DNA from: a virus | Lineage: Duplodnaviria > Heunggongvirae > Uroviricota > Caudoviricetes | Reading direction: 5' to 3' (one strand) | IMG/VR virus record: IMGVR_UViG_2690315748_000001 | Coordinates: 60,652 to 124,651 of that record | Length of the DNA stretch: 64,000 nucleotides | Part shown: piece by piece, positions 3,788 to 32,474 of the stretch | Numbering within the stretch: position 1 is the stretch's first letter | Layout of the letters: every line of letters begins with the position of its first letter | Notes under the pieces: model-generated | What the model saw: the letters and a program-made list of their open reading frames with translations, nothing else | Told to the model about the DNA's origin: nothing | Database searches by the model: none | Made by a program: the position numbers and the translations under genes

Positions 3788-6169
3788 ATGATTATTATTC
3801 GTAATTTGGTTCTTTTGCGTGGCGCAATGGGAGCAGGGAAATCATTTTTCATCAAAAAAAACAAGCTGGAACAGTTTGTACTGAGTGCAGATGCAATTCG
3901 CTTGCTTTTCCAAACGCCTGTAATGACTGAATCAGGCAAGTTTTCAATCAACTCAAGAAATGATGGGAAAGTGTGGAAGTTGTTGTTTGAACTTCTCGAA
4001 GAACGTATGAAACGTGGAGAGTTCACGATTATCGACGCTACACACGCTAAACAGGAAATGATTTCACAGTATAAGGATTTAGCACAGAAGTATCGTTATC
4101 GTGTTCATGTGGTTGATTTCTCTGACATTCCTCTGGAAACACTTTTGCTCCAGAACAGAATGAGAGACGAACACAAACATGTTCCTGAACATGTTATCAT
4201 GAATGTTCATGAACGTATGCAAACAGAGCATGTTCCAAAATGGGTTAATGTAATCAAGCCCGAAGAGTTTCATGATACAGTTCAGTTTGAACAAACGATT
4301 TACGAAAACTATGATTACATTCATCATTTTGGAGACATTCATGGAAGTTATGAAGCACTTATGGAGTACTTTGCGAAGACTGGACACGCTTTCTGCCAAG
4401 ATACAGGGTATCCGATTCTAAAGGAAAATGAACTGTATATCTTTGTAGGTGATATCACTGACAGAGGCACACAGAACGCAGAAGTATTAAATTTCTTTCT
4501 AAGTATCTACGCTCTTAAAAATGTTGTAATTCTCGAAGGAAATCATGAAATTCATTTATGGAACTGGGCGAATGACGAAGATGTTCGTAGCAAAGAGTTC
4601 ATCGACTTTACTCAACCACAACTTGAAAAGCCATTCAAGTATTTGATACCAGTTGATGTTGAATTTATTGATGAACTAGAAGAAAAATTGGATGAAGATA
4701 AATTGAAGGAATACAAGAAAGAAGTACGCCAATTCTATCGCAGACTTCGCCAAGTTGTTTGTTATAAGGCTCATGGTAAGGAAGTTGTTGTTACGCATGG
4801 TGGGCTTTCCAAAATGCCCGATAATCTTATGTATCTTGCCACAGAACAACTCATCAAAGGTGTAGGTGACTACGAGGTAGATATCGACAATGCTTGGGAC
4901 AACAATCTTCCATACATTTATGGTGAGTGCATTTACGCAACAGGTGGAGATGGGCTAAAAATTCCTTACGCTTTAGAAGTGTCAAAGAAAGTAGAGTTGT
5001 ATCAAATTCATGGTCATCGCAACATTTTCCGACTGCCTGTACAAGCAGGAAAGTACAGTTTTAACCTTGAAGGACAGGTTGAGTTCGGTGGTCATCTACG
5101 TGTGGTTGCATTAGATGCAGAGGGATTTCATGCGACAGAAGTAAAGAATAACAACTTCAAGATTCGCAAGGGTGTTGTTCCTAAACATATTGACGAGACA
5201 GATACGAGCATTGATCAGCTTATCGCATACATGTCTAATCATGAAATGATTGAAGAGAAGGACTTGGGTGGAAATATCTACTCATACAACTTTACTCGGA
5301 AGGCATTTAAGGATAAAGTTTGGGATGATATCAACGTGAAGGCAAGAGGTTTGTTTATTAACAAGAACACCAAAGAGATCGTTTCTCGATCATACAACAA
5401 GTTCTTCAATGTAAACGAACGCTCTTTCACGAAGATCAATGCGCTTGCCGACAATATGGTATTCCCTGTGCAAGTCTACGACAAACCGAACGGATACCTT
5501 GGAATTGTGGGATATGATTCTGAAAGCGATGAGCTAGTGTTTAGTTCGAAGTCGTCAACTGGTGGAGAATTTGCAGGATGGTTCAAAGAATTGTTTATCG
5601 GTCAGTTTGGAAGTGTTCTGGAAGCGATCAAACAAGAGTTAAAGGACGAAAATATCGCTCTGGTCTTTGAGGTAATCAAAGTGAAAGAAGACCCACACAT
5701 CATTGAATATGCAGAAGACAAATTGGTGCTACTTGATCTGGTGAAACGTACTGTGAAATATGAAAAACTTCCATATGATGATGTAGTTCAATTCGCAAGA
5801 TTCTATGGTTTAGAGCATAAAAATCTCATGCACACATTTGACAATTGGACTGACTTTTATATCTGGTATCGTGATGTGACAAATGACTTTAGTATTGATT
5901 ACAATGAAGGATTTGTTATTGAGGACTCTGCTGGATTCATGACAAAGATCAAGCTTCCTTTCTATAGTTTCTGGAAGCAATTTAGAAACATTAAGGATTT
6001 GTTTGCTAAACGTCACGAGCATACAGTAAAAGGTGGAAGTCTGTACACACCATTGCACAATAGAGTGTTCAAGTGGATGAAGGGTCAAGACCGTCAATGG
6101 TTGAAGAGAACTGATATCATTACTATTCGCAAGGCATACTTACAGGAGCAGTCCAAAGAACTGTTATAG
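3788..6169 (+). CDS. pnkp: Three-domain polynucleotide kinase / 2',3'-phosphoesterase / RNA-ligase-like nucleotidyltransferase (bacterial Pnkp-type RNA repair enzyme)
   Basis: N-term P-loop LRGAMGAGKSF (PNK-type kinase); central calcineurin-like metallophosphoesterase motifs GDIHG, GDITDRG, GNHE; C-term ligase-type motifs KARG (motif I, KxxG variant), EGFVIED (IV), MTKIKLP (V, KxK). Confidence 0.7.
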   Translation: MIIIRNLVLLRGAMGAGKSFFIKKNKLEQFVLSADAIRLLFQTPVMTESGKFSINSRNDGKVWKLLFELLEERMKRGEFTIIDATHAKQEMISQYKDLAQKYRYRVHVVDFSDIPLETLLLQNRMRDEHKHVPEHVIMNVHERMQTEHVPKWVNVIKPEEFHDTVQFEQTIYENYDYIHHFGDIHGSYEALMEYFAKTGHAFCQDTGYPILKENELYIFVGDITDRGTQNAEVLNFFLSIYALKNVVILEGNHEIHLWNWANDEDVRSKEFIDFTQPQLEKPFKYLIPVDVEFIDELEEKLDEDKLKEYKKEVRQFYRRLRQVVCYKAHGKEVVVTHGGLSKMPDNLMYLATEQLIKGVGDYEVDIDNAWDNNLPYIYGECIYATGGDGLKIPYALEVSKKVELYQIHGHRNIFRLPVQAGKYSFNLEGQVEFGGHLRVVALDAEGFHATEVKNNNFKIRKGVVPKHIDETDTSIDQLIAYMSNHEMIEEKDLGGNIYSYNFTRKAFKDKVWDDINVKARGLFINKNTKEIVSRSYNKFFNVNERSFTKINALADNMVFPVQVYDKPNGYLGIVGYDSESDELVFSSKSSTGGEFAGWFKELFIGQFGSVLEAIKQELKDENIALVFEVIKVKEDPHIIEYAEDKLVLLDLVKRTVKYEKLPYDDVVQFARFYGLEHKNLMHTFDNWTDFYIWYRDVTNDFSIDYNEGFVIEDSAGFMTKIKLPFYSFWKQFRNIKDLFAKRHEHTVKGGSLYTPLHNRVFKWMKGQDRQWLKRTDIITIRKAYLQEQSKELL

Positions 6170-16993: not shown

Positions 16994-18832
16994 GTGAAAA
17001 TGGTCACAGAGAAAAGTTTGATGGAGAAATTTGATGAAATCGTGAGTAGTAACAACAAAGATTTAATTCAAGAAAATGCAAATACAGATGGTATGAGTCC
17101 AATGGGGATGATGTCACTGTTTGCATCAACATCTGCAAAAACATTTGCAGTTGAAAAGCTTCTATCCGAAGAAGCGAGAAATGCTTATCTTGAAGGTTAC
17201 ATTCACATACACGATCTTGATTTCTATGCAACAGGAACTACAACATGTTGTCAAATCCCTCTTGGCAAGCTGCTGAGAAATGGCTTTGATACTGGTCATG
17301 GACATATGAGGGAGCCGAATAACATTATGAGTGCGATGGCATTGACTTCAATTATTCTACAAGCAAATCAAAACCAACAACATGGTGGTCAATCCATTCC
17401 GATGTTTGACTATGACTTGGCTCCATATGTAGAGAAAACATATCAAAAGTGTTTAGAGATGTTGAAGTCTATCGGATTGGTTAATGATATAGAAGAAAAG
17501 GCTTGGAATCTGACTGATAAGCAAGTATATCAAGCCTGTGAAGCATTTGTTCATAATAGTAATTCTATGCATAGTAGGGGCGGTTCTCAAACTCCATTTA
17601 TATCAATTAACCTTGGAACAGATACCTCAAAAGAAGGACGCATGATTACAAAAAATCTCTTGCTTGCAACACAGGCAGGGTTGGGCGATGGAGAAACACC
17701 GATCTTCCCGATCACTGTATTCAAGGTTAAAGATGGAGTTAATTTCAATCCTGACGATCCTAATTACGATTTGTATCAGCTATCACTTGAAACTACATCC
17801 AAACGTTTATTCCCAAACTATGTTTTTATTGATGCGCCTTTTAACCTTCAATATTACAATGGAACACCAGAAAGCGAGATTGCTACGATGGGCTGTAGAA
17901 CAAGAACTATTAGCAATGTTAATGGAGACGAAACCCCTGTCGGAAGAGGGAACCTTTCATTTACATCTATCAATCTTCCTCTATTAGCTATTGAGTCAAG
18001 AGATATTGATGACTTCTTTTTTAAGCTAAATAAATATGTTGATATTAGTATTAAACAGTTATTTGACCGCTATTTATATCAGGCTAGTAAGAGTGTTGCT
18101 AACTTTAAGTTCCTATATAGTCAAGGAATCTGGTCTAATGGAGAGGAACTAGATTCAAACGATAAGCTAGGTGACATTCTCAAGCAAGGAACATTATCTG
18201 TTGGATTCGTAGGCTTGGCAGAAGCACTTGTTGCACTTATTGGAGAGCATCATGGGGAGAGCGAAGAAGCTTGGGAACTTGGGTATAGTATCATTAAATT
18301 TATTCGAGATAAAACAGATGTTGCTACACGAAAATACAATATGAATGTAACAACACTTGCTACCCCCGCTGAATCGTTTGCTGGTAAAGCACTTAAAACC
18401 ACAAGAGAAAAGCATGGAGTCATACAAGGTGTTACAGACAGAGAGTATTTCACAAATGGTTTTCACATCCCTGTGTACTATAAGATCGGTGCATTTAATA
18501 AAATTAAAAAAGAAGCTCCATTTCATAATCTAACTAATGCTGGACATATCACCTACATTGAGCTTGATGGCAATGCTTCCAACAATGTAAAAGCGTTAGA
18601 TGCAATTGTTCGTGCAATGAAGGAGAATGGAATTGGATACGGAAGTATAAATCATCCCGTAGATCGCTGTTTGGACTGCAAACATCAAGGTATCATTAAT
18701 GAAGAATGTCCTAAGTGCGAAAGTAAAAAGATTGAACGCATTCGTAGGATTACAGGATATCTTGTTGGTAGTATGGATAAATGGAACTCAGCCAAACGTG
18801 CGGAAGAAAGAGAACGGGTTAAACACTCATAA
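16994..18832 (+). CDS. nrdD: Anaerobic (class III) ribonucleotide reductase
   Basis: IHIHDLD ... TCCQ N-terminal signature, C-terminal Zn ribbon CLDCKHQ ... CPKCES and glycyl-radical motif RRITGY. Confidence 0.8.
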   Translation: MKMVTEKSLMEKFDEIVSSNNKDLIQENANTDGMSPMGMMSLFASTSAKTFAVEKLLSEEARNAYLEGYIHIHDLDFYATGTTTCCQIPLGKLLRNGFDTGHGHMREPNNIMSAMALTSIILQANQNQQHGGQSIPMFDYDLAPYVEKTYQKCLEMLKSIGLVNDIEEKAWNLTDKQVYQACEAFVHNSNSMHSRGGSQTPFISINLGTDTSKEGRMITKNLLLATQAGLGDGETPIFPITVFKVKDGVNFNPDDPNYDLYQLSLETTSKRLFPNYVFIDAPFNLQYYNGTPESEIATMGCRTRTISNVNGDETPVGRGNLSFTSINLPLLAIESRDIDDFFFKLNKYVDISIKQLFDRYLYQASKSVANFKFLYSQGIWSNGEELDSNDKLGDILKQGTLSVGFVGLAEALVALIGEHHGESEEAWELGYSIIKFIRDKTDVATRKYNMNVTTLATPAESFAGKALKTTREKHGVIQGVTDREYFTNGFHIPVYYKIGAFNKIKKEAPFHNLTNAGHITYIELDGNASNNVKALDAIVRAMKENGIGYGSINHPVDRCLDCKHQGIINEECPKCESKKIERIRRITGYLVGSMDKWNSAKRAEERERVKHS

Positions 18833-19339: not shown

Positions 19340-19948
19340 ATGAAGGATATGAATTTTTTTAATCCGTTCACCTATTCTGATAAAGAGCGATGGAAAGACA
19401 TAGAGAAGCAAATGATATTTGAAGCGTGGGTTCCATTTGTATCGAACCGTCCGCTTCAATTTTTTGTGCCTTACCCGAAAAGTGAGGAAGAGGAAGAATC
19501 ACCATTACATACAGGAATTACAAAAGGACACCTTACGAGCATCATCGGTGATGATTCAACATCAAGCACTCATAATGTTGTTAGCACTTTAAAAAGAAGA
19601 AAAGTAGTCGTTCTATCGAGGGACAGCGTGTGCAAAAACGACTATATGCCTGAAATAATAGTGGCAAGGATTTTCTCTATTAAAGATAAACATAGAGAAG
19701 CGCGTTGGTATCCTGATTTGGTGAGTGGAAATCATGAGTGGTTTGTTCATTTGCCAAAACACATTACAGGGAAAGAGTCATATGTTAATATGACGCAAAC
19801 TATGCCAATTGGTAAGAACCTACTGATAGAAAAGTATGGTTTGTTAGATGGAGAACTTATGAAAATGGTAGAAGCAAGATATAAGCATGGGATTGATCTT
19901 GGAGTCATTAAGGAAACAAACGATGGCTTTATGGCATCTAGCGAATAG
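19340..19948 (+). CDS. hypothetical protein (202 aa)
   Basis: ORF with RBS gaaaggaac; no motif recognised. Confidence 0.45.
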   Translation: MKDMNFFNPFTYSDKERWKDIEKQMIFEAWVPFVSNRPLQFFVPYPKSEEEEESPLHTGITKGHLTSIIGDDSTSSTHNVVSTLKRRKVVVLSRDSVCKNDYMPEIIVARIFSIKDKHREARWYPDLVSGNHEWFVHLPKHITGKESYVNMTQTMPIGKNLLIEKYGLLDGELMKMVEARYKHGIDLGVIKETNDGFMASSE

Positions 19949-20034
19949 GAAAGGACAATTGTCCTTTCCTATTTTTTGTTTAGAGTAGACGGTAATCTCG
20001 TTTTCTTTCTTTTTAGGGAGATAATAATAAGTTG

Positions 20035-20064
20035 TTGACAAGGAGCCGAAGAAAGTACTATAAT
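20035..20064 (+). promoter_or_regulatory. Consensus promoter TTGACA-17-TATAAT whose spacer is the repeated motif AGGAGCCGAAGAAAGTA
   Basis: ttgacaaggagccgaagaaagtactataat read directly. Confidence 0.7.
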
Positions 20065-20102
20065 AATAAATGTAAGGAAGAACAAAACAAAGAGGTGAAC
20101 AA

Positions 20103-20300
20103 ATGATCGCAGTAGCTTGTGGAATGGAAGATGATGAAGCGCATAACATCGACAAGAGTTACGCTTCACATAAGTTGCGTCACGAACTTGAAGGCTTAGT
20201 TGTAATGTCAGAGTTTGATTTCATTAATAGGGTTGTAATTAGACGAGAGCCTTTGATACCGCCAATTAGATACTCTCGTAGTCATCGGCAAGGAGAGTAA
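20103..20300 (+). CDS. hypothetical small protein
   Basis: ORF with RBS agaggtg. Confidence 0.4.
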   Translation: MIAVACGMEDDEAHNIDKSYASHKLRHELEGLVVMSEFDFINRVVIRREPLIPPIRYSRSHRQGE

Positions 20301-20302
20301 AT

Positions 20303-21073
20303 ATGATAATTGAGAGAAGTATACTTGTGAAGGCACTGGTTGGCTCACATAACTACAATCTTGCAACGCCAGAGTCAGACAAAGACTACAAGATATTCAC
20401 CATGCCAACGTTCGATGATCTTTACAGAGGTAAAATGTACTCGAAGGCAGATGTTGGATTAGAGTTCGATTTCGATGTGCATGACATTAGGAAAATGGTT
20501 GCTCTGTTCTGGAAAGCAAACATCAACTTCCTTGAAGTCCTCTACTCGAAAGAAAATCACATCTATGATAAAAACATTAAAGAAATATACAATCTGCGGA
20601 AAGATATAGTGAGAATGAATCTACCTTACTTATACAATGCATGTAGAGGAATGCACTTCGAAAAGATGAAGCGTCTGGATAACCCAACAGAAGGAACAGC
20701 ACACTTGATTGAGAAGTATGGCTATAATACCAAAGAAGCATTACATGCTTACAGGGTTCTCGATTTTATTACTCGATTTGCATATACAGACTTCGAGGAT
20801 TTCGAATGGGCAATGACTTACGATGAAAACCTTAGAGAAAGAATGCTTGAAATCAAAAATGGAGAATACCCAAAAGTAACGTTCCAAATGTTGATTCGTC
20901 AAAAGATGAGTCAATTCGAAAAGTTTGACCAAGCATACTATAGTCAAAAGCCCAATGAAGAATTAAAACAGCACATTGATTTAATTATATACAATATGAT
21001 TAAGGAAAATTTTCAAGGAACTAAAGAAAGTACTTTGGGAGGAAATGAAGATGCTCAAACAATTACGCAGTAA
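20303..21073 (+). CDS. Polymerase-beta-superfamily minimal nucleotidyltransferase-domain protein
   Basis: GSHNYNLATPESDKDY matches the hG[GS]x9-13Dh[DE]h NTase signature; 256 aa. Confidence 0.4.
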   Translation: MIIERSILVKALVGSHNYNLATPESDKDYKIFTMPTFDDLYRGKMYSKADVGLEFDFDVHDIRKMVALFWKANINFLEVLYSKENHIYDKNIKEIYNLRKDIVRMNLPYLYNACRGMHFEKMKRLDNPTEGTAHLIEKYGYNTKEALHAYRVLDFITRFAYTDFEDFEWAMTYDENLRERMLEIKNGEYPKVTFQMLIRQKMSQFEKFDQAYYSQKPNEELKQHIDLIIYNMIKENFQGTKESTLGGNEDAQTITQ

Positions 21074-22466
21074 CCCAATTATGTTGACTGACGCATACAA
21101 CTTGTCGCACCAAAACTTGAAGGTTAATACAGATTGGGAAATATCCCATATGTACAATCGTTCCAAGTCAATGATTCTGTTCGGACTTCTTGAAATTATT
21201 AACAACATCTTGGAGACACGAATCAACATGTCAATGATTGACGAAGCTGAATTTCATGCAAATCGTATGGGAATTACATTCCCTAGAAAACTTTGGGAGC
21301 GAGTAGTCAAGGAATGTGGTGGTTATATTCCCTTGGAGATACAAGCTCTACCAGAAGGTACGTACTGCCCTGTAGGAACACCTTTCGCTCAAATTCGTAA
21401 CACAGTTAAGGGTTTTGGTGAAATGGTTACATGGTTCGAGGGCGAATTGATGCACGCTTATTTCCCATCAACCGCTGCTACACAAGCACTTCGTATGCGG
21501 CGTTATCTGGAACAAAAGAAGCGTCAATATGGTTATGATGACAGTTTTATGCTTCGTTTGCACAGCTTTGGATTTCGAGGTCATCGCAGCCTTGAAGACG
21601 CATATTGGGCAGGGATTTCGTGGAATTTATTCTTGTATGGTACAGACGACTTCCACACAGCATTTCACACTCCAAGTGCGAATCTCGTAAGTATCGCAGC
21701 TACTGCACACAAGGTAACACAGCAATTTGACAATGAGTATGAGGGTTATAGACATGTGATCAAGGCAACAGCAGATGTAGGGGAGAAGATCGTAGCAATC
21801 GTAATTGACACATATGATGCATATCGTTTCCTTGATGAATACTTAATTCCATTGGCTAAATACGCCGCATCGCTTGGAGTTCATATGGTAATTCGTCCAG
21901 ACAGTGGCGACACATGGGAACAGGTTGTGATTGCATACAAGAACATTTCTCGTCACTTCATTCCGATCACGAATGTTACTGCTATCATTGGTGAAAGCAT
22001 GGACTTTGAAAATGTGAAAAAGGCAGATGCTTATTTTGAGCAACATGGCGTTCCATTGAACTTCGTATCATATGGAGTTGGTGGAGGATTCTACAACTAT
22101 GCAAATCGAGATACGCTTGGATGGGCAATGAAAACAGCTTACTCTAATGGTAAAGATCGCATGAAATTCTCTGAGAATCCAATCAAACGTAGTATTCCTG
22201 GGGTTGTTGAACTTTATCGCAATGAATATGGTGATTTAGTTGTAGGCAAAGAGAATAGTGTCAAAGAAGGAAAACTCTACGAGACGATCTACTTCCATGA
22301 TGCTGTAGCTGATACGCCGATCATGAAGCAATATTCCGATGAACATTGGTTGTCTGTTCAGGCGACAGCTCTTTCGGCAAACACAGAGCAAGCAAATATC
22401 TATCTCAGCGATGAAGTTCGTACAGAGATTGGCGAGTTCCAAAGACGATACAGAAATCGGGTGTAA
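21051..22466 (+). CDS. nadV: Nicotinamide phosphoribosyltransferase (NadV/Nampt)
   Basis: NPIMLTDAYNLSH N-terminus, FGFRGHRS, IRPDSGD motifs of the type II PRTase/NadV family; start 21051 preferred over 21045 for RBS spacing. Confidence 0.75.
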   Translation: MLKQLRSNPIMLTDAYNLSHQNLKVNTDWEISHMYNRSKSMILFGLLEIINNILETRINMSMIDEAEFHANRMGITFPRKLWERVVKECGGYIPLEIQALPEGTYCPVGTPFAQIRNTVKGFGEMVTWFEGELMHAYFPSTAATQALRMRRYLEQKKRQYGYDDSFMLRLHSFGFRGHRSLEDAYWAGISWNLFLYGTDDFHTAFHTPSANLVSIAATAHKVTQQFDNEYEGYRHVIKATADVGEKIVAIVIDTYDAYRFLDEYLIPLAKYAASLGVHMVIRPDSGDTWEQVVIAYKNISRHFIPITNVTAIIGESMDFENVKKADAYFEQHGVPLNFVSYGVGGGFYNYANRDTLGWAMKTAYSNGKDRMKFSENPIKRSIPGVVELYRNEYGDLVVGKENSVKEGKLYETIYFHDAVADTPIMKQYSDEHWLSVQATALSANTEQANIYLSDEVRTEIGEFQRRYRNRV

Positions 22467-22468
22467 CT

Positions 22469-23086
22469 ATGTCAATGAACCTAAGAAAGTATAAGTTTGG
22501 ATTTGTTATTGGTCGATTCCAGATGCTACATGCAGGACACGAACATCTAATTAATACAGCTTTAGCTCAGTGCGAGAACTTACTAATCCTAGTGGGTTCA
22601 TCGCAAGAGTCTAAAACGTTCAGGAATCCATTTGATGCATTTACTAGAATCCTTATGCTTAAAGAGATTTATGGTGATAATCCAAACGTTTACATTGCAC
22701 ACATTGCAGACCTAACCAATGAAAACGATCATTCACATGATTGGGGTAGGTACTTGTTAAACGAGGTGAATGATTGGGCTGAAATATGCGATATAAAAGA
22801 ACCACTTGACGCGATGTTCTATGGCAATGACGAAGAACGTGAAGACTGGTTTGACCCAAAAGACATTGAAGGAATTGCACAGATTAAGCTTGATCGAGCA
22901 GACATTCTAATCAGTGGGACAACAATGAGAAGCTATCTCGCATGGAACAACTTTACTCTGTGGTCGAAGTTTGCTAATCAGAAGCTTCATAGTTACTTTG
23001 AAACTTTGAGACAAAAACTTTTTGAGGTGGGAAAAGACGATGACGAAGAGACAGTTAAAGATTGGCGACGAAGTAGAGGTAATTAG
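22469..23086 (+). CDS. Nicotinamide-nucleotide adenylyltransferase (NadM/NadR-type NMNAT)
   Basis: GFVIGRFQMLHAGHEHLI, the (H/T)xGH cytidylyltransferase motif in the NadM context, directly downstream of nadV. Confidence 0.7.
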   Translation: MSMNLRKYKFGFVIGRFQMLHAGHEHLINTALAQCENLLILVGSSQESKTFRNPFDAFTRILMLKEIYGDNPNVYIAHIADLTNENDHSHDWGRYLLNEVNDWAEICDIKEPLDAMFYGNDEEREDWFDPKDIEGIAQIKLDRADILISGTTMRSYLAWNNFTLWSKFANQKLHSYFETLRQKLFEVGKDDDEETVKDWRRSRGN

Positions 23087-23579
23087 GAATACGTATAATG
23101 ACTACATCAAAATAGGTATGAAAGGTGTAGTCAAGGATTTACGTTGTAACAATCAGGAAATTGGTGTTTGCTTCAACGAACATGATATTCATGGACACGA
23201 TCTCAATGGAAAGGTCAAATATGGACATGGGTGGTATTTTTATTTAAGTGAGATTAAACATATTGAGCATTCAGAGAAAATCACTGTCATGCTTGAAGGG
23301 AAGAGAACAACTGTCACACTGGAAGATGGAAGTGTTGGTATATCTAATCCAACGTATAAAGATAAATATAATTTAGAAAAAGGCATCGAGATTGCGAAAA
23401 CAAAAGCACTGATTGCACGAAACAAAAAGAAAGGTGAAGAGATGGAAGGGAAGGCACAAAAATTGAGTGTTCAAATTGCTGATCTACAGCGTGAATACTC
23501 AGAAGTAGTGAATCATATCCCATTTATTTACAATGAAATTACTGAATTAGAAGGAAAAGTCAAGGAAATCGGAGGGTAA
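23040..23579 (+). CDS. hypothetical protein with C-terminal coiled coil
   Basis: ORF; GAGGTGG RBS then ATG 23040; overlaps end of NMNAT gene. Confidence 0.4.
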   Translation: MTKRQLKIGDEVEVIRNTYNDYIKIGMKGVVKDLRCNNQEIGVCFNEHDIHGHDLNGKVKYGHGWYFYLSEIKHIEHSEKITVMLEGKRTTVTLEDGSVGISNPTYKDKYNLEKGIEIAKTKALIARNKKKGEEMEGKAQKLSVQIADLQREYSEVVNHIPFIYNEITELEGKVKEIGG

Positions 23580-23582
23580 CAC

Positions 23583-24113
23583 ATGACAACAACACACGAA
23601 TCATTGTACAAGACTCCATGGGTGGAGTTGATGAAACGAACATCGGATGAAGATGGTACATATATCTACATTCGTGAGCCATGGCTAATCAATGGTCAAG
23701 CAATTTCGATTCTTCCATATCGTCTTGATTGCGACGAAATCGAATTGTTGGTTCGATGTGAAGTGGCTGATGTTCCTGTGATGGGTACTATTAAGGGTGG
23801 TTGTGACAAAGAAGGGGAAGCCATTGAAGAAACAGCGGTTCGTGAACTTCTTGAAGAAGCTGGTTACTCAATTCATCCTTCGCAATTAATTCATTTAGGA
23901 ACTGCTAGAACATCGAAGCTCAACACAACAACGATGAATCTGTTTGCAGTCGATCTGACTGATGAAGAGCAAGGTGAAGCAATTGGGGATGGCACGAAGA
24001 ATGAAGCAAATGCTTACTGTAAGTGGATTTCAGAAGAAGAGTCTTTAGATGTACAAGACCCAATCATCCACACTTCGATGGTCAGACTTATAAATCAAAG
24101 TGGAAGATTTTAA
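23583..24113 (+). CDS. Nudix hydrolase (probable ADP-ribose pyrophosphatase)
   Basis: Nudix box GGCDKEGEAIEETAVRELLEEAGY (GX5EX7REUXEEXGU). Confidence 0.7.
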   Translation: MTTTHESLYKTPWVELMKRTSDEDGTYIYIREPWLINGQAISILPYRLDCDEIELLVRCEVADVPVMGTIKGGCDKEGEAIEETAVRELLEEAGYSIHPSQLIHLGTARTSKLNTTTMNLFAVDLTDEEQGEAIGDGTKNEANAYCKWISEEESLDVQDPIIHTSMVRLINQSGRF

Positions 24114-24134
24114 GACGACATAATAGTCTAAATT

Positions 24135-24149
24135 AAAAAAAAAAAAAAA
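24135..24149. repeat. A15 homopolymer tract
   Basis: 15 consecutive A between Nudix gene and next ORF. Confidence 0.9.
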
Positions 24150-24174
24150 TAAATTTATGAATGGAGAATGTTAA

Positions 24175-24462
24175 ATGACTAAAGTATACGCAAATGAAGA
24201 GGTAGTAGTAGTTCAGGATGTAGAATTGGTGCAAGCTGTTGTGGAATTGGCTTTCCTGCGAATGATTGATTATGATGCATACGCTGTAGCTAACAAACTT
24301 CTGGCTGATCTGCTTCGCGAAAGTCTGGAAACAGAATTGGTGATCGGGATTGTGGTTCTGGATGAAGGGACTGTAGGACTGCTGACGTACAACATTCTGG
24401 CTGATGACTATAATCACTTTGTACAGGGTCAAGACGAATACGGATTCTATGTTGAAGTATAA
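24175..24462 (+). CDS. hypothetical acidic protein
   Basis: ORF with RBS atggagaatg. Confidence 0.4.
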   Translation: MTKVYANEEVVVVQDVELVQAVVELAFLRMIDYDAYAVANKLLADLLRESLETELVIGIVVLDEGTVGLLTYNILADDYNHFVQGQDEYGFYVEV

Positions 24463-24465
24463 TTA

Positions 24466-24484
24466 AGGAACCGAAGAAAGTACT
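24466..24484 (+). repeat. Repeated motif copy aggaaccgaagaaagtact
   Basis: One substitution (A for G) from consensus. Confidence 0.65.
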
Positions 24485-24563
24485 TAGTTAATATCTTTGG
24501 AGAGCTAATTCTACTCTCCAAAGAAACAAAAATTTTATTTAGAGTGAAGAGGGTTGGTAAAAA

Positions 24564-24764
24564 TTGAAATGGATTGTTGTAGTAAAAGGTAACTATTATC
24601 CATCTGTAATTGAATGCAAAGATGAGGAAGAAGCGGTAGAAGTATGCGAACAACAGGTTAAACTCCTTGCAGAGCTAGATTCTGATGAATTTCGTGTATA
24701 TATCGCAAAAGTGACGAGATGGGTAGGAAAACACAGTGAAAATGTCGTTCATAGCCTACTTTAA
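24564..24764 (+). CDS. hypothetical small protein
   Basis: ORF with RBS agagggttgg. Confidence 0.4.
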   Translation: MKWIVVVKGNYYPSVIECKDEEEAVEVCEQQVKLLAELDSDEFRVYIAKVTRWVGKHSENVVHSLL

Positions 24765-24802
24765 GACTAAATAAAACTGCGATTCCATTTAGATTTTGGA
24801 GG
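24765..24802 (+). repeat. Second repeated intergenic element, copy 2
   Basis: gactaaataaaactgcgaTTCCATTTAGATTTTGGAGG. Confidence 0.65.
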
Positions 24803-24808
24803 ATAAAA

Positions 24809-25066
24809 ATGCCACATTACAAATTGTTCAAGTACAGCTTAGGTGACTATGAAAGAGAGATAGCGTCTGGAACAGATGAAAATCTAATTGCAGAACATGC
24901 TATTGCTTTATCATCATTTGATGAGCCATACATGTACGCGTACAGACTTGAAGCATGGATTGGTGATAGACAAATTGGTGGATGGAGATTCTTCCAAAAT
25001 GGAAGAGAGTTTACAGAAGATATTCGAAAAGCAGCAATAAAATCATTGAAGGAGATAAATAAATGA
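24809..25066 (+). CDS. hypothetical protein
   Basis: ORF preceded by second repeated element ending in GGAGG. Confidence 0.45.
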   Translation: MPHYKLFKYSLGDYEREIASGTDENLIAEHAIALSSFDEPYMYAYRLEAWIGDRQIGGWRFFQNGREFTEDIRKAAIKSLKEINK

Positions 25067-25287
25067 ACATCTACGAGATTCAAGAATACGCAAAAGATCA
25101 TGGATTTGATTCTCTTAAATTCGCAATGACAAATCGAAATGGAGCTACATTCTATGGACACTTCTTAGATGCTTACTTTGGCATGATTATGATCCCCGAA
25201 ATTGGCGATGGATTCATTGTGATATCTCATCTCATTCAGGAATATGGTTTCGATGAATTTGAATTTACAGTATTAGAGGGGAATTAA
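25063..25287 (+). CDS. hypothetical protein
   Basis: ATGA overlap with previous gene. Confidence 0.4.
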   Translation: MNIYEIQEYAKDHGFDSLKFAMTNRNGATFYGHFLDAYFGMIMIPEIGDGFIVISHLIQEYGFDEFEFTVLEGN

Positions 25288-25290
25288 ACA

Positions 25291-25464
25291 ATGGCACAAA
25301 CACAAGTAACCAATGAATATCTTCTACAATTACAAGAACAACAAGCGAAAGAGTATGGAATGAAGGTTGATGTTTATCACAGTGAAATTGGAAAAACAAT
25401 CGGGGTCTTCCCACATAATGCAATGCCGATACCGCCAAATGCACTTCGAGTAATTAGATATTAA
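25291..25464 (+). CDS. hypothetical small protein (57 aa), not in ORF track
   Basis: ATG 25291 after RBS agaggggaat; fills gap between flanking genes. Confidence 0.35.
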   Translation: MAQTQVTNEYLLQLQEQQAKEYGMKVDVYHSEIGKTIGVFPHNAMPIPPNALRVIRY

Positions 25465-25475
25465 GGAGATGACTG

Positions 25476-25781
25476 TTGAGCATGGATACAAGATATATAG
25501 TGACTAAGGTCACCGAGCTTGATCGAGTTACACCGAAGACTGCTTTGCCTGAACAAAACATGGACTATGATTTAGTCGTGAAATGCGAGTATGCCGCACA
25601 CTTCAATCCATATTTGGGGCGATCAATGGTCTTAATCCCAACAAAACCGAATGACGATATCAATTCAATGAATATCTACACCTCATCTGTATTCAGCATT
25701 GAAGACAATGGAGACGAATTGATTGTAGTGACAAGAAACACAGTTTACTATTTCGAGAAAAGAGAGGTAGGAAACTGTTAA
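25476..25781 (+). CDS. hypothetical protein
   Basis: ORF with RBS aaggagatg. Confidence 0.4.
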   Translation: MSMDTRYIVTKVTELDRVTPKTALPEQNMDYDLVVKCEYAAHFNPYLGRSMVLIPTKPNDDINSMNIYTSSVFSIEDNGDELIVVTRNTVYYFEKREVGNC

Positions 25782-25810
25782 TTATTACTAAATAAAAGGG
25801 GATAAACACA

Positions 25811-26257
25811 ATGACAATCAAGCAACGCCTGACAGATGAAATGAAAGAAGCAATGCGTAACAAGAATAAAGGCACACTAGCTACGATCAGACTGCTTATT
25901 GATCGCATTCAGAAAAAAGAAAAGGATGCATTGCGTGATCTGACAGAAGAAGAAGCTGTTCAAGTGCTTCAAACGTTCAAGAAGCAAGTTCGTGAGGAAG
26001 CTGATGCCTTTGCAAATGCAGGGAAGTTCAGTAGGGAAGCGGAACTGGTTGACTCTATCTTTTTGGTGGACAGGTTCTTGCCACAACAAATGAGCAAAGA
26101 AGAGATTGACATTCAAGTTCAACTTGTAATTTCTGAAATAACTTCAAATGGACAAGTGCCAAATAAAGGTTTGGTTATGAAAAACCTGATGCCATTAGTA
26201 AAAGGAAAGGCTGACAACAAGCTGGTGAATGAGGTTGTCACTGAGACATTGGCATGA
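25811..26257 (+). CDS. GatB/YqeY-domain protein
   Basis: MTIKQRLTDEMKEAMRNKNK ... typical YqeY N-terminus and size. Confidence 0.55.
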   Translation: MTIKQRLTDEMKEAMRNKNKGTLATIRLLIDRIQKKEKDALRDLTEEEAVQVLQTFKKQVREEADAFANAGKFSREAELVDSIFLVDRFLPQQMSKEEIDIQVQLVISEITSNGQVPNKGLVMKNLMPLVKGKADNKLVNEVVTETLA

Positions 26258-26475
26258 TGTTCTGGAAGAAAAAGAAAGCTCAACCTAAACCTATTTGTGA
26301 TCATGAGTGGGTCAACCTTGATGAAGGAATGTCAAGTGCAATGGTTGAAATATATTGTCCAAAATGCACTCAAAGCCGAAATGTAACTAATTCAGAAGCG
26401 AGAAAACAAGTGAAGAAATCAAAGTTGAGAAAGGAATATCTCGACAAGATGAAAGAAGAGAGGTTGTTATCATGA
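26254..26475 (+). CDS. hypothetical small protein with zinc-ribbon-like Cys pairs
   Basis: CDHEW ... CPKC. Confidence 0.35.
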   Translation: MMFWKKKKAQPKPICDHEWVNLDEGMSSAMVEIYCPKCTQSRNVTNSEARKQVKKSKLRKEYLDKMKEERLLS

Positions 26476-26927
26476 AGTATGGTCAGCGAGAAATAATTGA
26501 TTTAACTATTTATGATGAGCTGGGAAATAAAGTTGCACATTTGGATTCTCTCAAAGAAAGCTATCTAGGCAAGCACACTGTATTTGTAAAAGATGCTTTG
26601 CTTGACTTAGACCTTCTTAAATTTATGGGTAAAGCTGAAGACAAATTTGTTAGTGATTATGAATCGGAAAGTTCTCGTGAAAAATACGATACTACAATTG
26701 TATTTAATCATAACACAACAAAACCCTGTAAACTGATTGGCAAAGGTGTTATTAGAAGTCAAGAAACTGGTAGAGATGTTGAGTTTATGTATGAAGTTCC
26801 AAAAGCTGAAATCTCATTAAACTACACTATGATCGTAGAAAGTTCTCCTAACGTTTCAGATCATGATTTCTCTTTCGATATTCTCCCATTCAATGAAGAG
26901 GGAGATATGTATAAGTTGCATATCTAG
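26472..26927 (+). CDS. hypothetical protein
   Basis: ORF, ATGA overlap with upstream. Confidence 0.4.
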   Translation: MKYGQREIIDLTIYDELGNKVAHLDSLKESYLGKHTVFVKDALLDLDLLKFMGKAEDKFVSDYESESSREKYDTTIVFNHNTTKPCKLIGKGVIRSQETGRDVEFMYEVPKAEISLNYTMIVESSPNVSDHDFSFDILPFNEEGDMYKLHI

Positions 26928-26938
26928 GAGGTTGTCAA

Positions 26939-27154
26939 ATGAGTATACAAGTGCCAGTGAAAGTGACCAACTGTGATAAGTGTCCATATGCAGAAGTAAG
27001 GAAGGTATGGACTTTGGATTCTTGGGATGATGTTCGAGCAATCAAATGTACTAAGTTGGACAAGGATGTTTATGGGTATCTTGATTGGTACGATAATTCT
27101 CCTGTTCCTGATGAGTGTCCATTTGTAGTGGAGGTAGGAAATGAAGCTGATTAA
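26939..27154 (+). CDS. hypothetical small Cys-rich protein
   Basis: CDKCPY ... C...C. Confidence 0.35.
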   Translation: MSIQVPVKVTNCDKCPYAEVRKVWTLDSWDDVRAIKCTKLDKDVYGYLDWYDNSPVPDECPFVVEVGNEAD

Positions 27155-27269
27155 CTTCATATTGCATATGTTTGGCGGTTGTCCTGATGAGGATTTAGTT
27201 GAAGCAAAACGTGGAAAGATGAAGTGTTCGAAGTGTGAGCGAGAGTATTTTGTATTCAAAACATATTAA
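27141..27269 (+). CDS. hypothetical 42-aa zinc-ribbon peptide, not in ORF track
   Basis: GGAGGTAGG RBS; CP..D and CSKC pairs. Confidence 0.3.
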   Translation: MKLINFILHMFGGCPDEDLVEAKRGKMKCSKCEREYFVFKTY

Positions 27270-27281
27270 GGAGTGTTAAAC

Positions 27282-27713
27282 ATGGGAGTAGTATTGAAGA
27301 TTAAAGGTGACAATCTAACTATTGAAGATTTGCAGGAAATGAAGGAGAACATAGAAGAAGCTATTACTAAAAAGAAGAAAGAAATGGCTTTAGCTATGTC
27401 TGGATGGCTTGAAGATGTTATCAGGGATGGTAAGGAACGAATTGTTGATCAAGAATACTTTTTAGAAGTTACGGATTTATCAGAAGTTTTATTTATCAAA
27501 TGGTATGTGAATCACAAGTTAAAGCAACGAGATTATCTACCTAAATACATTCACAAATGTACAAGCAAAAAAGTTCCAGAAACTACTTATGTATTTGATG
27601 ATAGCAAGAAAAGTATCGGATTGAGCGCTGGCAAGAAACATGCTTTAGTGATTCATGACGAAAGTCTCCCTTATTTGAAAGAAGAGTTTGAAGAATGGAG
27701 CTGGAAGCAATGA
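27282..27713 (+). CDS. hypothetical protein
   Basis: ATG 27282 after taaggagtg RBS. Confidence 0.4.
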   Translation: MGVVLKIKGDNLTIEDLQEMKENIEEAITKKKKEMALAMSGWLEDVIRDGKERIVDQEYFLEVTDLSEVLFIKWYVNHKLKQRDYLPKYIHKCTSKKVPETTYVFDDSKKSIGLSAGKKHALVIHDESLPYLKEEFEEWSWKQ

Positions 27714-27928
27714 GTGAATATGCAAAGATTTATGCTTATATTGAGATAGGAAAATACTTGTATCGAGATGGAACGAGCAAATTCTATAACGACTTGAAGG
27801 AAGTTTACGGACTGCAAGATCATCCTAAGTTTGACCTTCTGTACAGCATTTCGTGGGAGCGTGGACATGCATATGGATTAACTGATGTACTTGGAGTGTT
27901 TAATGATCTGGTGGAGTTGATTCGATAG
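27695..27928 (+). CDS. hypothetical protein
   Basis: ORF overlapping upstream gene end. Confidence 0.35.
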   Translation: MELEAMSEYAKIYAYIEIGKYLYRDGTSKFYNDLKEVYGLQDHPKFDLLYSISWERGHAYGLTDVLGVFNDLVELIR

Positions 27929-27940
27929 GAGTGATTTCTT

Positions 27941-28246
27941 ATGTTCTATAGACACTATAAGGGTGGTATTTATTACACTTTAGGGTTGACTTCGCTCTAC
28001 GAAGGAACAGGTTTGGAAAGAGAGTGGACACACAACTATTTAAGCGCTATCCACACAGAAACAGGGAGAAAGATTGCTGTATCGCTGATTGATGGTAGAT
28101 TCCATGTGCTAGATGAAGAGGATACAAACTTGGTTCTTTATTTAGATATGGTTGGTCGTTTCTGGCTCAGACCAAGAGACATTTTCTTTGAAACAGTAAA
28201 AGTGGATGGAAAAGAAATAAGACGCTTTTTAAATTATTATAAGTGA
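27941..28246 (+). CDS. hypothetical protein
   Basis: ORF with RBS taggagtg. Confidence 0.4.
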   Translation: MFYRHYKGGIYYTLGLTSLYEGTGLEREWTHNYLSAIHTETGRKIAVSLIDGRFHVLDEEDTNLVLYLDMVGRFWLRPRDIFFETVKVDGKEIRRFLNYYK

Positions 28247-28270
28247 CAAAGAAAGTATTGGGGGAGTTAT

Positions 28271-29563
28271 ATGCAGACTGTGATGGAAATATTTAGGGAG
28301 ATTAAAGAAACATCAAGCAGAACAGGCAAGGAAGCTATTCTAAAAGCAAATGTTGATAATCAAGATTTTCGTAAAATTTTGGAGTTTCTCTACAATCCAT
28401 TCGTCCTGACAGGAATTAAAGCAAAGAAGTTACAGAAGTTCTCTGATTATAACGCTCATCACATTCAATTTTTTAATGTTTTTGAAGCTATTAACTTCAT
28501 CGTTAAGAATAATACAGGTCGAGATGAAGATGTTAAGGCGATTGCTAACTTCATTAATAGTCGCACAGGTGAAGTTCATGATTTCCTCCAAGATATGTTC
28601 ACGAAGGATTACAAGTGTGGCATCACTGCCAGTACGATCAACAAGGTATATGGCAAGGGAACAATCCCTGAGTTCGATGTATTGCTTGCTAAAGCGTACA
28701 AAGATCATGGTCATAAGCTAAAAGGTCGCTTCTACATTACGTTAAAACTTGATGGAATCCGATGTGTTGCGATTAAGAAGAATGGTGTAGTTCAGTTCTT
28801 CACTCGTCAAGGTCAACCTATTGACGATCTGGTTGATATTGAGGATGAGATTACACGCAACTTCCCTGACAACTTCGTTTACGATGGAGAATTGCTTCTG
28901 AAAAATCCTCTTGGACTGCCAAGTGATACTCTGTTCCGAGCAACGCAGAAAGTTGTTCGGAAGGATGGAGTCAAGAAGGACTTAGAGTTCCATGTATTTG
29001 ATGGACTTCCAATTGATGAGTTTATGGAAGGAAAGTCTAAGCTGACATATGAGCAACGTAGATCAGAATTGGATAGTGGGATATTCAGTACAAGCCATGA
29101 ACATGTACATTATCTGCCGATCCTTTACGTGGGTGAAGATAAGACTGTTATCAGTGATATCCTAGCAGAAGTTGTCTCATTGGGTCATGAAGGTCTGATG
29201 ATTAATACAGCCAAAGGACACTATGTAACCAAACGATCTGATGTGTTATTAAAGGTTAAAGAGATGCACACAGTTGACCTGAAAGTCCTTGGACTTGAAG
29301 AGGGTAGTGGTAAGTATAAAGGTACTCTAGGCGCTATCATCGTAGATTACAAAGGGTACGAAGTTAGAGTTGGTTCTGGATTCACCGATCCCGAACGAAA
29401 CATGCTGTGGAACACTAAAAATATCAAGGAATTGAGTCTTGTAAATAAGATAGCTGAAATTCAATATTTCGAGGAATCGACAAATCAGGATGGCGGTATC
29501 TCGCTGAGATTCCCTGTATTTTTACGCATCAGAGATGACAAGACGGAGCCTAGTCTACATTGA
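28271..29563 (+). CDS. ATP-dependent DNA ligase
   Basis: Adenylation motif I KLDGIRC (KxDG) plus downstream nucleotidyltransferase/OB region; 430 aa. Confidence 0.75.
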   Translation: MQTVMEIFREIKETSSRTGKEAILKANVDNQDFRKILEFLYNPFVLTGIKAKKLQKFSDYNAHHIQFFNVFEAINFIVKNNTGRDEDVKAIANFINSRTGEVHDFLQDMFTKDYKCGITASTINKVYGKGTIPEFDVLLAKAYKDHGHKLKGRFYITLKLDGIRCVAIKKNGVVQFFTRQGQPIDDLVDIEDEITRNFPDNFVYDGELLLKNPLGLPSDTLFRATQKVVRKDGVKKDLEFHVFDGLPIDEFMEGKSKLTYEQRRSELDSGIFSTSHEHVHYLPILYVGEDKTVISDILAEVVSLGHEGLMINTAKGHYVTKRSDVLLKVKEMHTVDLKVLGLEEGSGKYKGTLGAIIVDYKGYEVRVGSGFTDPERNMLWNTKNIKELSLVNKIAEIQYFEESTNQDGGISLRFPVFLRIRDDKTEPSLH

Positions 29564-29805
29564 TGAAGGCAGAGATTCGCAAGGAAAGACTGCGGTTGTT
29601 GTCGGAAATAGACACCATAGAGAAAGCTTGTGAAGGTTGCCCAACACGCGCTCATTTCAACAACCTGAAAGACGCTACAGGGTTAATTCAAGCCTGTAGA
29701 GAGTGTCCTGTATTTGCTGATTTAAGTCAGTATGGTGAGAGGTTATTGAAGTTGTCTGAACCGAGAAAAAAGATATCTATAGGAACCGAAGAAAGTATTG
29801 ACTAG
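29560..29805 (+). CDS. hypothetical Cys-containing protein
   Basis: CEGCP ... CRECP. Confidence 0.35.
   Translation: MMKAEIRKERLRLLSEIDTIEKACEGCPTRAHFNNLKDATGLIQACRECPVFADLSQYGERLLKLSEPRKKISIGTEESID
29781..29803 (+). repeat. Repeated motif copy aggaaccgaagaaagtat followed by TTGACT
   Basis: Read directly. Confidence 0.65.
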
Positions 29806-29862
29806 ATGTAAAAACAATGATAAGATATTAAATATAAGGCGGTCGTGATAAAGAATCATTCA

Positions 29863-29882
29863 AGGAGCCGAAGAAAGTACTA
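29863..29882 (+). repeat. Repeated motif copy aggagccgaagaaagtacta (second copy 80 bp after the first, upstream of dUTPase)
   Basis: Exact consensus. Confidence 0.7.
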
Positions 29883-29900
29883 TTAACTGGAGGAATGTAA

Positions 29901-30641: not shown

Positions 30642-30646
30642 CGTTA

Positions 30647-30684
30647 AGGAGCTAAAGAAAGTACTAACGGGGAGTTCGCTCCCC
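30647..30684 (+). repeat. Variant motif copy aggagctaaagaaagtacta followed by GGGGAG-ttcg-CTCCCC hairpin
   Basis: Read directly after dUTPase stop. Confidence 0.55.
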
Positions 30685-30714
30685 TTAAATTATGCTTATG
30701 AGGTGAAACAACGA

Positions 30715-31008
30715 ATGACAATTACGAGGGGAACAAAACGAAACTCGTATCGCATCACCAAGAAGACATTGGGGGAAAGGCAAACCCAAGTATTAAATGA
30801 GCTGATGCTACATCCAGATGGTGTGACAGCTAGTGAATTAGCTCTAAGTATGTGGGATAAGGGATTCTTCGTAATGCCTGACAGAAACAATGTTCATCCA
30901 CGATTGAATGAACTTGTCGAACTAATGTTAGTCGAAGTCACTGGTAAACGATCTTGTAGCGTAACTAACAGGACTGTCGCAGTTTACCAAGTAAAGGGAG
31001 AGATTTAA
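30715..31008 (+). CDS. hypothetical protein
   Basis: GAGGTG RBS then ATG 30715. Confidence 0.4.
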   Translation: MTITRGTKRNSYRITKKTLGERQTQVLNELMLHPDGVTASELALSMWDKGFFVMPDRNNVHPRLNELVELMLVEVTGKRSCSVTNRTVAVYQVKGEI

Positions 31009-31009
31009 T

Positions 31010-32414: not shown

Positions 32415-32428
32415 TACATTAATTTCGA

Positions 32429-32460: not shown

Positions 32461-32474
32461 CTAGGAGGTTTTAC

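Follow-up and report, generated by a model that had tools for sequence, protein, structure and literature searches.

Does the locus between positions 20035 and 24113 of the window, the 64,000-nt stretch of phage DNA analysed here (IMG/VR record IMGVR_UViG_2690315748_000001, positions 60,652 to 124,651), rebuild nicotinamide adenine dinucleotide (NAD+) during infection, and which of its genes take part? Among the outcomes of bacterial anti-phage immunity, NAD+ depletion is one of the commonest, and phages are known to rebuild the cofactor by three routes, one being NAD+ reconstitution pathway 2 (NARP2). NARP2 consists of Nampt and Nmnat, and has been shown experimentally to overcome Thoeris and other NAD-depleting systems (bioRxiv 10.1101/2024.02.11.579819). 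We conclude, at a probability of roughly 0.75 for the whole of the following statement, that the region is a NARP2-type NAD+ salvage cassette at the promoter end of a long operon (early or middle) in a ~154-kb Paenibacillus phage, that a small protein encoded inside the cassette (orf179) may serve as an adaptor, and that a nucleotidyltransferase (NTase) encoded next to NadV belongs separately to RNA repair. Gene content, intact motifs, synteny and domain fusions are the observations on which this statement is built; the substrates, the adaptor role, the benefit against defence and the role in RNA repair are what they suggest.

The central gene of the region encodes NadV, a nicotinamide phosphoribosyltransferase of the Nampt family (21051..22466, + strand). 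Two start codons are candidates, at 21045 and 21051; spacing from the ribosome-binding site (RBS) and comparison with homologues favour the ATG at 21051, which gives a protein of 471 residues. NadV matched PF04095 (E = 2e-13), PF18127 and phrog_448 (1e-66), and its matches to NAMPT structures in the PDB ranged from 2.5e-28 to 1e-24. Aligned to human and Xanthomonas NAMPT, it keeps the equivalents of human Y18, F193, R196, D219, H247 (the phospho-histidine of the human enzyme), R311, D313, G383-G384 and R392, with E at the position of human D354. The next gene starts 2 nt past the NadV stop codon and encodes a stand-alone nicotinamide mononucleotide (NMN) adenylyltransferase (NMNAT) of the archaeal/NadM type (22469..23086, + strand), with matches to PF01467 (2.5e-13), TIGR01527 (9e-17) and, in the PDB, M. 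jannaschii NMNAT (2e-10). Its HxGH motif is GRFQMLHAGH (residues 15–24) and its ISxTxxR motif is ISGTTMR (residues 148–154). Farther downstream lies a gene for a stand-alone Nudix hydrolase, a probable ADP-ribose/ADP-sugar pyrophosphatase (23583..24113, + strand; PF00293, 3.6e-8), in which the Nudix box (GX5EX7REUXEEXGU) is intact as GCDKEGEAIEETAVRELLEEAGY at residues 73–95. No catalytic motif of NadV, NMNAT or Nudix was found to be lost on alignment, and, as a preliminary description of this DNA had proposed, the combination of NadV with a NadM/archaeal-type NMNAT matches the enzymology of Nampt plus Nmnat.

These genes share a transcription unit. A sigma-70-type consensus promoter (20035..20064, + strand), with TTGACA at 20035–20040, an 18-nt spacer and TATAAT at 20059–20064, matches the consensus hexamers at 12 of 12 positions. 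Six genes lie close together behind it, in the order orf65, NTase, NadV, NMNAT, orf179 and Nudix, separated by successive gaps or overlaps of +2, -23, +2, -47 and +3 nt. The description of NadV, NMNAT and a separate Nudix gene as one co-oriented unit starting at the 20035 promoter is thus borne out.

The predicted pathway is short. NadV would convert nicotinamide and phosphoribosyl pyrophosphate (PRPP) to NMN, and the stand-alone NMNAT would make NAD+ from NMN and ATP. NADase immune effectors also release ADP-ribose; the Nudix hydrolase would split it into AMP and ribose-5-phosphate, with the ribose re-entering PRPP synthesis through the host Prs, and would do the job of the C-terminal Nudix domain in the bifunctional phage NadM-Nudix protein (NatV). 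The net effect would be to keep or restore NAD+ during infection, including infection of hosts with NAD+-depleting abortive-infection systems, such as those of the TIR, SIR2 and SEFIR kinds.

We compared 87 NadV loci, namely the window, the 80 most similar IMG/VR loci and six others. In lists of loci, W is the window itself, and L and P numbers denote comparison loci and proteins. Neighbouring genes were classified by open reading frame (ORF) length and motifs, since fused proteins contaminate NMNAT and Nudix profiles. An NMNAT-type ORF lies beside NadV in 75 of the 87 loci, and 67 of the 79 NMNAT-type ORFs encode 300–400 residues, the size of a fused NadM-Nudix protein. Among the 87 loci, clear stand-alone NMNAT genes (188–232 codons) occur only in the window's own NadV clade, which a neighbour-joining tree resolved as a deep third branch comprising the NadV proteins of W, L004, L001, L006, L002, L052 and L003. 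Each member of this clade has an NMN adenylyltransferase, either a stand-alone NMNAT or NadR, and a downstream Nudix gene: the L003 and L052 cassettes combine NMNAT with a NudE/YffH-type Nudix, and the same order, NadV-NMNAT-Nudix, is found in L133 (Viridibacillus). Prs-like (NARP1-type) partners occur only in two loci added as outliers, LeBron and L017. The L002 cassette (L002:6004-10186; IMGVR_UViG_3300025534_000013) contains NadV (74% identical to that of the window), PnuC, orf116, NadR and Nudix, with PnuC scoring 163 bits against a cutoff of 42 and NadR 243 bits against a cutoff of 201; it combines a NARP2 Nampt with a NARP3-type transporter/NadR pair.

Several observations weigh against our reading, the first being the position of NadV itself. 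The branch that holds the window NadV groups with neither the main fused-NMNAT clade nor the Prs-linked (NARP1-type) sequences, at distances of 0.77 to NMNAT-linked and 0.82–0.86 to Prs-linked sequences, and its predicted identity as a PRPP-using Nampt rests on residues and the NMNAT partner, not on phylogeny. The same placement would suit a NARP1-type Namat, whose substrate would be ADP-ribose pyrophosphate (ADPR-PP) rather than PRPP, as would the similarity to LeBron gp72, which adjoins a Prs-like gene: at 133 bits, this is slightly under the 155 bits obtained with NARP2-type Nampts. No Prs/Adps-like gene was found, however, either within the cassette or in a Pfam scan of window ORFs of 270–340 residues, the window being 64 kb of the ~154-kb genome. 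Moreover, the NMN adenylyltransferase that follows NadV in every clade member would be pointless if NadV made NAD+ directly. We consider it extremely unlikely that NadV is a Namat.

The Nudix hydrolase is a second point. Its best NCBIfam matches, NudE, YffH/AdpP and NudF, scored 17–19 bits against cutoffs of 80–248, and a profile of its clade (17 members) searched against the PDB placed NudJ, not an ADP-ribose pyrophosphatase, first (6e-7), followed at 2e-5 to 7e-5 by the ADP-ribose pyrophosphatase-type protein 'Act', Bdellovibrio NudF (positions 6–136) and two ADP-ribose pyrophosphatases; these results count against the pathway as drawn. The subfamily is small, with 22 homologues, nearly all on ~140-kb contigs from Paenibacillus assemblies; Tenacibaculum phage pT24 is the sole sequenced phage with a similar Nudix, and the neighbourhood there is uninformative. 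PADLOC, run on seven proteins, returned nothing for six and a marginal match for the Nudix (PDC-S07, E = 0.0079, 13.8 bits). The weak family scores, the NudJ match and the near absence of this clade from sequenced phages would fit a hydrolase that limits NAD(H), one that decaps NAD-capped RNA, or one that cleaves a nucleotide signal of immunity. Phages usually have Nudix as the C-terminal domain of NadM/NatV, and that domain has been proposed to regulate NAD+ by cleaving it (PMC9503650). Against such roles, the top three NCBIfam matches and most PDB profile matches are ADP-sugar or ADP-ribose hydrolases, with alignments running through the N-terminal region; no NudC-type family match was found for the window Nudix; and the positionally equivalent proteins of L003, L052 and L002 are clearly of NudE/YffH type. 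Nudix genes of sister cassettes best match NudE and YffH/AdpP ADP-sugar hydrolases (3e-22 to 2e-8), and the L133 Nudix, which is 38% identical to that of the window, also follows NadV-NMNAT. That a Nudix from one of at least two subfamilies always follows the adenylyltransferase argues for a functional need. Judged by family resemblance and by the precedent of NatV, the window enzyme most likely splits ADP-ribose into AMP and ribose-5-phosphate, and a different Nudix activity seems to us rather unlikely.

The cassette could also serve phage metabolism more generally, supplying NAD+ for nucleotide and DNA synthesis rather than countering defence, a role reportedly first proposed for KVP40 NadV/NatV. 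In keeping with this, it sits in one long operon among genes for ribonucleotide reductase, thioredoxin, ThyA, DHFR, thymidine kinase, dUTPase and DNA ligase. NARP2 phages, furthermore, overproduce NAD+ even without a defence system (bioRxiv 10.1101/2024.02.11.579819). On the other hand, the phage DNA ligase is ATP-dependent (PF01068), which leaves no obvious phage consumer of NAD+ in the window, and rescue from NAD-depleting defence by NARP2 has been shown experimentally (bioRxiv 10.1101/2024.02.11.579819). The two roles are not mutually exclusive. As an alternative to counter-defence, we regard the general metabolic role as possible, if doubtful, and retain the NARP2-type reading.

We next consider orf179, which overlaps the end of the NMNAT gene and ends just before the Nudix gene (23040..23579, + strand). 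The preliminary description listed an ORF of 185 codons at 23022–23579; the more likely start is the ATG at 23040, giving 179 residues, as in the public annotation P0121. That description took the product to be a coiled-coil protein, but there is more to it. An AlphaFold2 (AF2) model (predicted local distance difference test score, pLDDT, 88.5), with strands across residues 11–102 and a helix at 112–176, indicates three parts: an SH3-like beta-barrel (approximately residues 5–76), a three-stranded module with the signature TTVTLEDGS...EKGIEIAKxKA (approximately residues 78–125), and a helix of 65 residues, the last of them -IGG. The barrel (the N-terminal 75 residues) superposes on the Xrn1 SH3-like domain and the TDRD3 Tudor domain at 2.4–3.1 Å. 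These local fold matches (Xrn1 SH3-like, Tudor/KOW) all have E > 0.02, none being significant in the PDB, and Foldseek searches of the PDB and BFVD yielded small-barrel matches and uncharacterised phage proteins only. We found no Pfam match for orf179 itself, and a direct PDB sequence search gave nothing useful; its relatives match PF18129 (SH3_12), some strongly and the L136 orthologue weakly. A word-indexed search retrieved a single homologue, whereas exhaustive HMMER searching retrieved 172 at E ≤ 1e-3. A Pfam scan of 20 larger relatives of the SH3 family revealed no recurring enzyme partner, and hidden Markov models of the barrel and the middle module matched no ORF of the 64-kb window besides orf179. 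Catalytic features are absent, and nothing observed here supports the suggestion that this protein acts on ADP-ribose or cyclic ADP-ribose derivatives.

The position of orf179 is shared among related phages. A homologue holds the NMNAT/Nudix junction in L004/5 (177 residues, 72% identity), in L135 (271 residues, two barrels) and in L136 (147 residues, with a short helix). In P0130/L006, P0139/L130, P0134/L131 and P0137, by contrast, only the barrel is found, joined in frame to the Nudix N-terminus, giving proteins of 252–261 residues. This split-or-fused pattern ties the SH3-like barrel to Nudix, and orf179 is a real component of the cassette, conserved at the junction or fused to Nudix. Because sister phages fuse the same domain to the Nudix N-terminus, orf179 might act as an adaptor that binds Nudix, or that tethers or oligomerises it with the other enzymes, although we hold this with low confidence. 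L001 and the distant L132/133 cassettes have no SH3 protein, which indicates that orf179 is dispensable for the core chemistry and counts against the adaptor part of our reading.

The same absences raise the question of whether orf179 is a moron, a small phage gene without relation to the cassette that by chance came to lie between NMNAT and Nudix. The NMNAT stop codon overlaps the Nudix start directly in L001, and members of the SH3-like domain family occur widely among phages, in many different contexts. Nevertheless, an SH3-like module occupies this junction in eight of the nine Paenibacillus-clade cassettes examined; it is kept at 38–72% identity while the C-terminal parts differ, and four distinct sequences join it in frame to Nudix. 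Furthermore, the closest full-length relative whose context was checked, P0157, is identical to the L136 junction ORF in the same cassette, and the L135 junction protein shares its layout of two SH3 domains, middle module and helix with P0146. Chance insertion is therefore unlikely in our judgement, and we continue to treat orf179 as part of the cassette.

Two further observations concern this family. Despite variable helix length, its members have a conserved -(I/L)GG right before the stop codon (23568–23576 in the window), which is also present in P0122, P0145, P0146, P0156, P0157 and L135:5183-5998. In L052 (L052:5347-6728; IMGVR_UViG_3300042922_000346), whose NadV is 53% identical to that of the window, a 92-codon ORF lies between NMNAT and a NudF-like Nudix gene; directly 3' of the latter is a gene for a 187-residue protein with a barrel-like N-terminus, a middle module of the orf179 type (E = 1e-5) and a coiled coil.

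The gene immediately upstream of NadV encodes, as the preliminary description had noted, a polymerase-beta-type NTase of 256 residues with a GS...DKD motif (20303..21073, + strand). We assign it to the RlaP family: it matched PF10127 over residues 6–153 at 29.2 bits (gathering cutoff 23, E = 1e-6) and phrog_388 at 1.6e-32, and most of its homologues have a precomputed PF10127 match. The GS...DKD motif lies at residues 14–28, with G14-S15 and D26-x-D28 invariant in 24 homologues, and the AF2 model (pLDDT 91.6) has a generic NTase fold. A PDB sequence search with the NTase returned no match. We discarded the Foldseek match to HalB as a functional likeness, the hits being generic polymerase-beta NTases (Hailong HalB, kanamycin NTase, LinB) at a TM score of ~0.4. 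In tRNA repair, RlaP enzymes of Pseudomonas extend RNA 3'-OH ends by one or two nucleoside monophosphates; damaged tRNA mimics are their preferred substrates, they are inactive on DNA or protein, and T4 NrdC.11 belongs to the same family (PMC12776372). In jumbo phages, the distribution of RlaP mirrors that of RNA ligases (PMC7824862).

An RNA ligase is also present in this genome. An ORF of 793 codons (3788..6169, + strand) encodes a polynucleotide kinase/phosphatase/Rnl1-type RNA ligase fusion (AAA_33, 1.7e-17; Metallophos, 3.3e-12; RNA_lig_T4_1, 2e-38), a single-chain RNA end-healing and sealing enzyme, and is preceded by a perfect TTGACA-N17-TATAAT at 3696–3724. The NTase would most likely work with this fusion to repair cleaved tRNA or RNA, an association at the level of the genome and not of the operon. 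In L136:1929-3263 and L132/L133:1365-2714, a CCA-adding-type tRNA nucleotidyltransferase (PF01743) is encoded just upstream of the NadV cassette instead of RlaP, in L132/133 preceded by a P-loop kinase. Non-orthologous RNA 3'-end repair enzymes, RlaP and the CCA-adding type, thus appear to occupy one neighbourhood. A different RNA 3'-end NTase in sister phages fits the repair reading, and hints at a clustering of functions that reverse damage inflicted by the host.

It had been suggested that the NTase and the wedged ORF extend the pathway chemically, through ADP-ribose or cyclic ADP-ribose derivatives, into a new route of NAD reconstitution. The gene order gives some encouragement to this idea and weighs against a separate role in RNA repair. 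The NTase gene shares 23 nt with NadV and belongs to the same transcription unit; W, L004/5, L006 and L130 all have it between orf65 and NadV, so that the adjacency recurs in four related phages; and L001 has a divergent NTase paralogue (34% identity) 1 kb downstream of its cassette. A lineage-specific functional link between the NTase and NAD may therefore exist. Outside this lineage the association dissolves. NTase homologues occur in 41 other IMG/VR loci (26–61% identity), and in only one of these, L017, does a NadV-like gene lie within 8 kb, 4.4 kb away and beside a Prs-like gene; the remaining 40 loci have no NadV, NMNAT or Nudix gene within that distance, and NMNAT and Nudix matches were found in 0 of the 41. 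No neighbouring family is common to more than seven of 44 loci. Thg1-like genes adjoin distant homologues in L044–L047. Among sequenced phages, 109 have an NTase homologue, 98 of them Bacillus phages, including the NARP-less SBSphiJ5-7; SBSphiJ was itself a NARP-less recipient that needed a NARP knock-in to escape Thoeris (bioRxiv 10.1101/2024.02.11.579819). Moreover, the entire cassette is kept without this NTase in L135 and L136, RlaP enzymes act on RNA 3'-OH ends (PMC12776372), and orf179, a beta-barrel plus helix, has neither a catalytic motif nor an enzyme-fold match. We regard a chemical extension of the pathway as very unlikely; as judged from its family and its neighbours, the NTase is a probable RNA 3'-end repair enzyme, a variable neighbour of the cassette and not a component of the NAD pathway.

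By the same comparison, orf65 belongs with the cassette. This first gene (20103..20300, + strand) has a good RBS, and homologues of 38–83% identity lie upstream of NadV in L004, L006, L130, L135 and L136, so that it is kept in six cassettes, with or without the NTase; its relatives in this clade have 57–65 residues. Searches of Pfam, PHROG, NCBIfam and PADLOC with orf65 returned no match. We predict that orf65 is a conserved, non-enzymatic cassette component. A more ambitious reading would make the locus a five-part NARP2 variant, with orf179 and orf65 as subunits or regulators, for example a NadV-NMNAT-Nudix complex that channels ribose derived from ADP-ribose into NAD+, or a Nudix targeted to a host factor. 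It would also make the locus a repair island, in which an RlaP or CCA-adding NTase beside the cassette groups functions that reverse tRNA cleavage with those that reverse NAD+ depletion. We consider this combination improbable.

The genome setting agrees with a Paenibacillus phage. A 154,442-bp contig labelled Paenibacillus sp. Mc5Re-14 encodes a protein that matches the NTase at 100% identity. When the 4.2-kb region was compared by megablast with 50,697 phage records, no match was returned, and the phage therefore has no close sequenced relative in that collection. All genes of the region are co-oriented, with neighbours encoding ribonucleotide reductases, thioredoxin, DNA ligase, dUTPase, ThyA, DHFR, thymidine kinase and a PolIII-alpha-type polymerase. 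An intrinsic terminator (19943..19974, + strand; a 14-bp stem then a T run, -21.8 kcal/mol, z = -6.6) closes the upstream unit, and the 20035 promoter begins 60 nt past its hairpin. On the + strand, no terminator-like site was found from 19974 to 34245, there being only a weak hairpin at ~24494–24523; the transcription unit therefore probably continues well past 24113. A hairpin after 24486 was rejected as the end of the operon, being weak (z = -1.5) and without a U tract. The 61-nt spacer that follows the Nudix gene (24114–24174) has 15 consecutive A residues and no stable structure. An Rfam scan of the whole window and a tRNA scan were negative.

The promoter is also repeated, in agreement with its earlier description as a repeat element. 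A second, exact copy of its 30-mer is at 38709 and a third, with one mismatch, at 34294, against 0 copies expected by chance; a terminator hairpin precedes the 30-mer at each of its sites. The spacer is itself a copy (20043–20060) of an 18-nt repeat dispersed through the window, GAGCCGAAGAAAGTACTA, which is present in 12 copies with at most two mismatches, against 0 expected, usually with AAG in front. Copies are at 3681, 6175, 6850, 11140, 20043, 24468, 29865, 30649, 34302, 35044 and 38717 on the + strand and at 59970 on the - strand. All but one of the 12 are intergenic, the exception being the copy at 11140, at the listed start of the 11138–12868 ORF, and in all 12 the orientation is that of the flanking genes. 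Three copies form the spacer of a perfect sigma-70-type promoter, and in two the 3' end overlaps a -35 hexamer; directly 3' of the repeat lie an RBS and ATG in three copies and a hairpin in two. We did not find the repeat in L001, L004 or L006. Candidate roles are those of a promoter or operator specific to this phage, or of a signal acting at the RNA level.

Two genes upstream of the cassette deserve mention. Besides the class I NrdE/NrdF pair, the phage has an NrdD-like anaerobic ribonucleotide reductase of 612 residues (16994–18832, + strand); a gene at that position is absent from the closest relative, L004, and present in L001 and L136. Just before the terminator, an ORF of 202 codons (19340–19948, + strand) gave a sub-threshold match to PemK/MazF-like toxins (E = 4e-4). 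PemK matches were also found at the corresponding position in L006 and L130, and L001, L004, L135 and L136 have homologues of 42–96% identity. A phage MazF-fold protein beside RNA-repair and NAD genes is curious.

The core chemistry of a NARP2-type pathway is already known, and the locus adds nothing to it. What is new is a Gram-positive phage clade with split NMNAT and Nudix genes, a very divergent Nampt and a rare Nudix subfamily, together with two uncharacterised proteins that accompany the enzymes, one of which occurs repeatedly as a Nudix fusion. Should orf65 and orf179 turn out to be functional subunits, no accessory factor would have been described earlier for any phage pathway of NAD+ reconstitution. 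The comparison also removes a false lead: the adjacent NTase, a member of the RNA-repair RlaP family, should not carry an NAD-pathway annotation.

Compared with known systems, the locus most resembles NARP2 and the NadV-NatV pair of Vibrio phage KVP40 (Lee, Li & Miller 2017, as cited in PMC9503650), with a Nampt whose catalytic residues are intact, then an NMN adenylyltransferase, and a Nudix activity encoded along with them. As in NARP2, it lies in an early/nucleotide-metabolism region of a phage and would lead from nicotinamide and PRPP through NMN to NAD+. It differs from the NatV architecture in that NMNAT (22469–23086) and Nudix (23583–24113) are separate ORFs with orf179 between them, and from KVP40-type cassettes in that the Nudix is of another, small subfamily, NadV is on a deep separate branch, and two extra conserved non-enzymatic genes, orf65 and orf179, are present. 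The NTase resembles RlaP (PfRlaP/PaRlaP and T4 NrdC.11) in scoring above the Pfam threshold and in having the GS and DxD motifs. Like T4 nrdC.11, it is phage-borne and in an nrd/nucleotide-metabolism region, with an RNA ligase and an end-healing enzyme in the genome. By contrast with characterised RlaP enzymes, it matches the Pfam model over its N-terminal ~150 residues only, belongs to a Bacillales-phage subfamily (phrog_388) known from sequence, and is 16 kb from the ligase gene rather than adjacent to it. The orf179 barrel superposes locally, at E > 0.02, on Xrn1-type SH3-like and Tudor/KOW barrels, and its relatives match PF18129, whereas its beta-meander and long -IGG helix have no characterised counterpart. 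Lastly, the window cassette itself has neither PnuC nor NadR, the components of NARP3 (PMC13464706), but the related L002 cassette carries both where NMNAT sits, indicating that the adenylyltransferase slot is modular.

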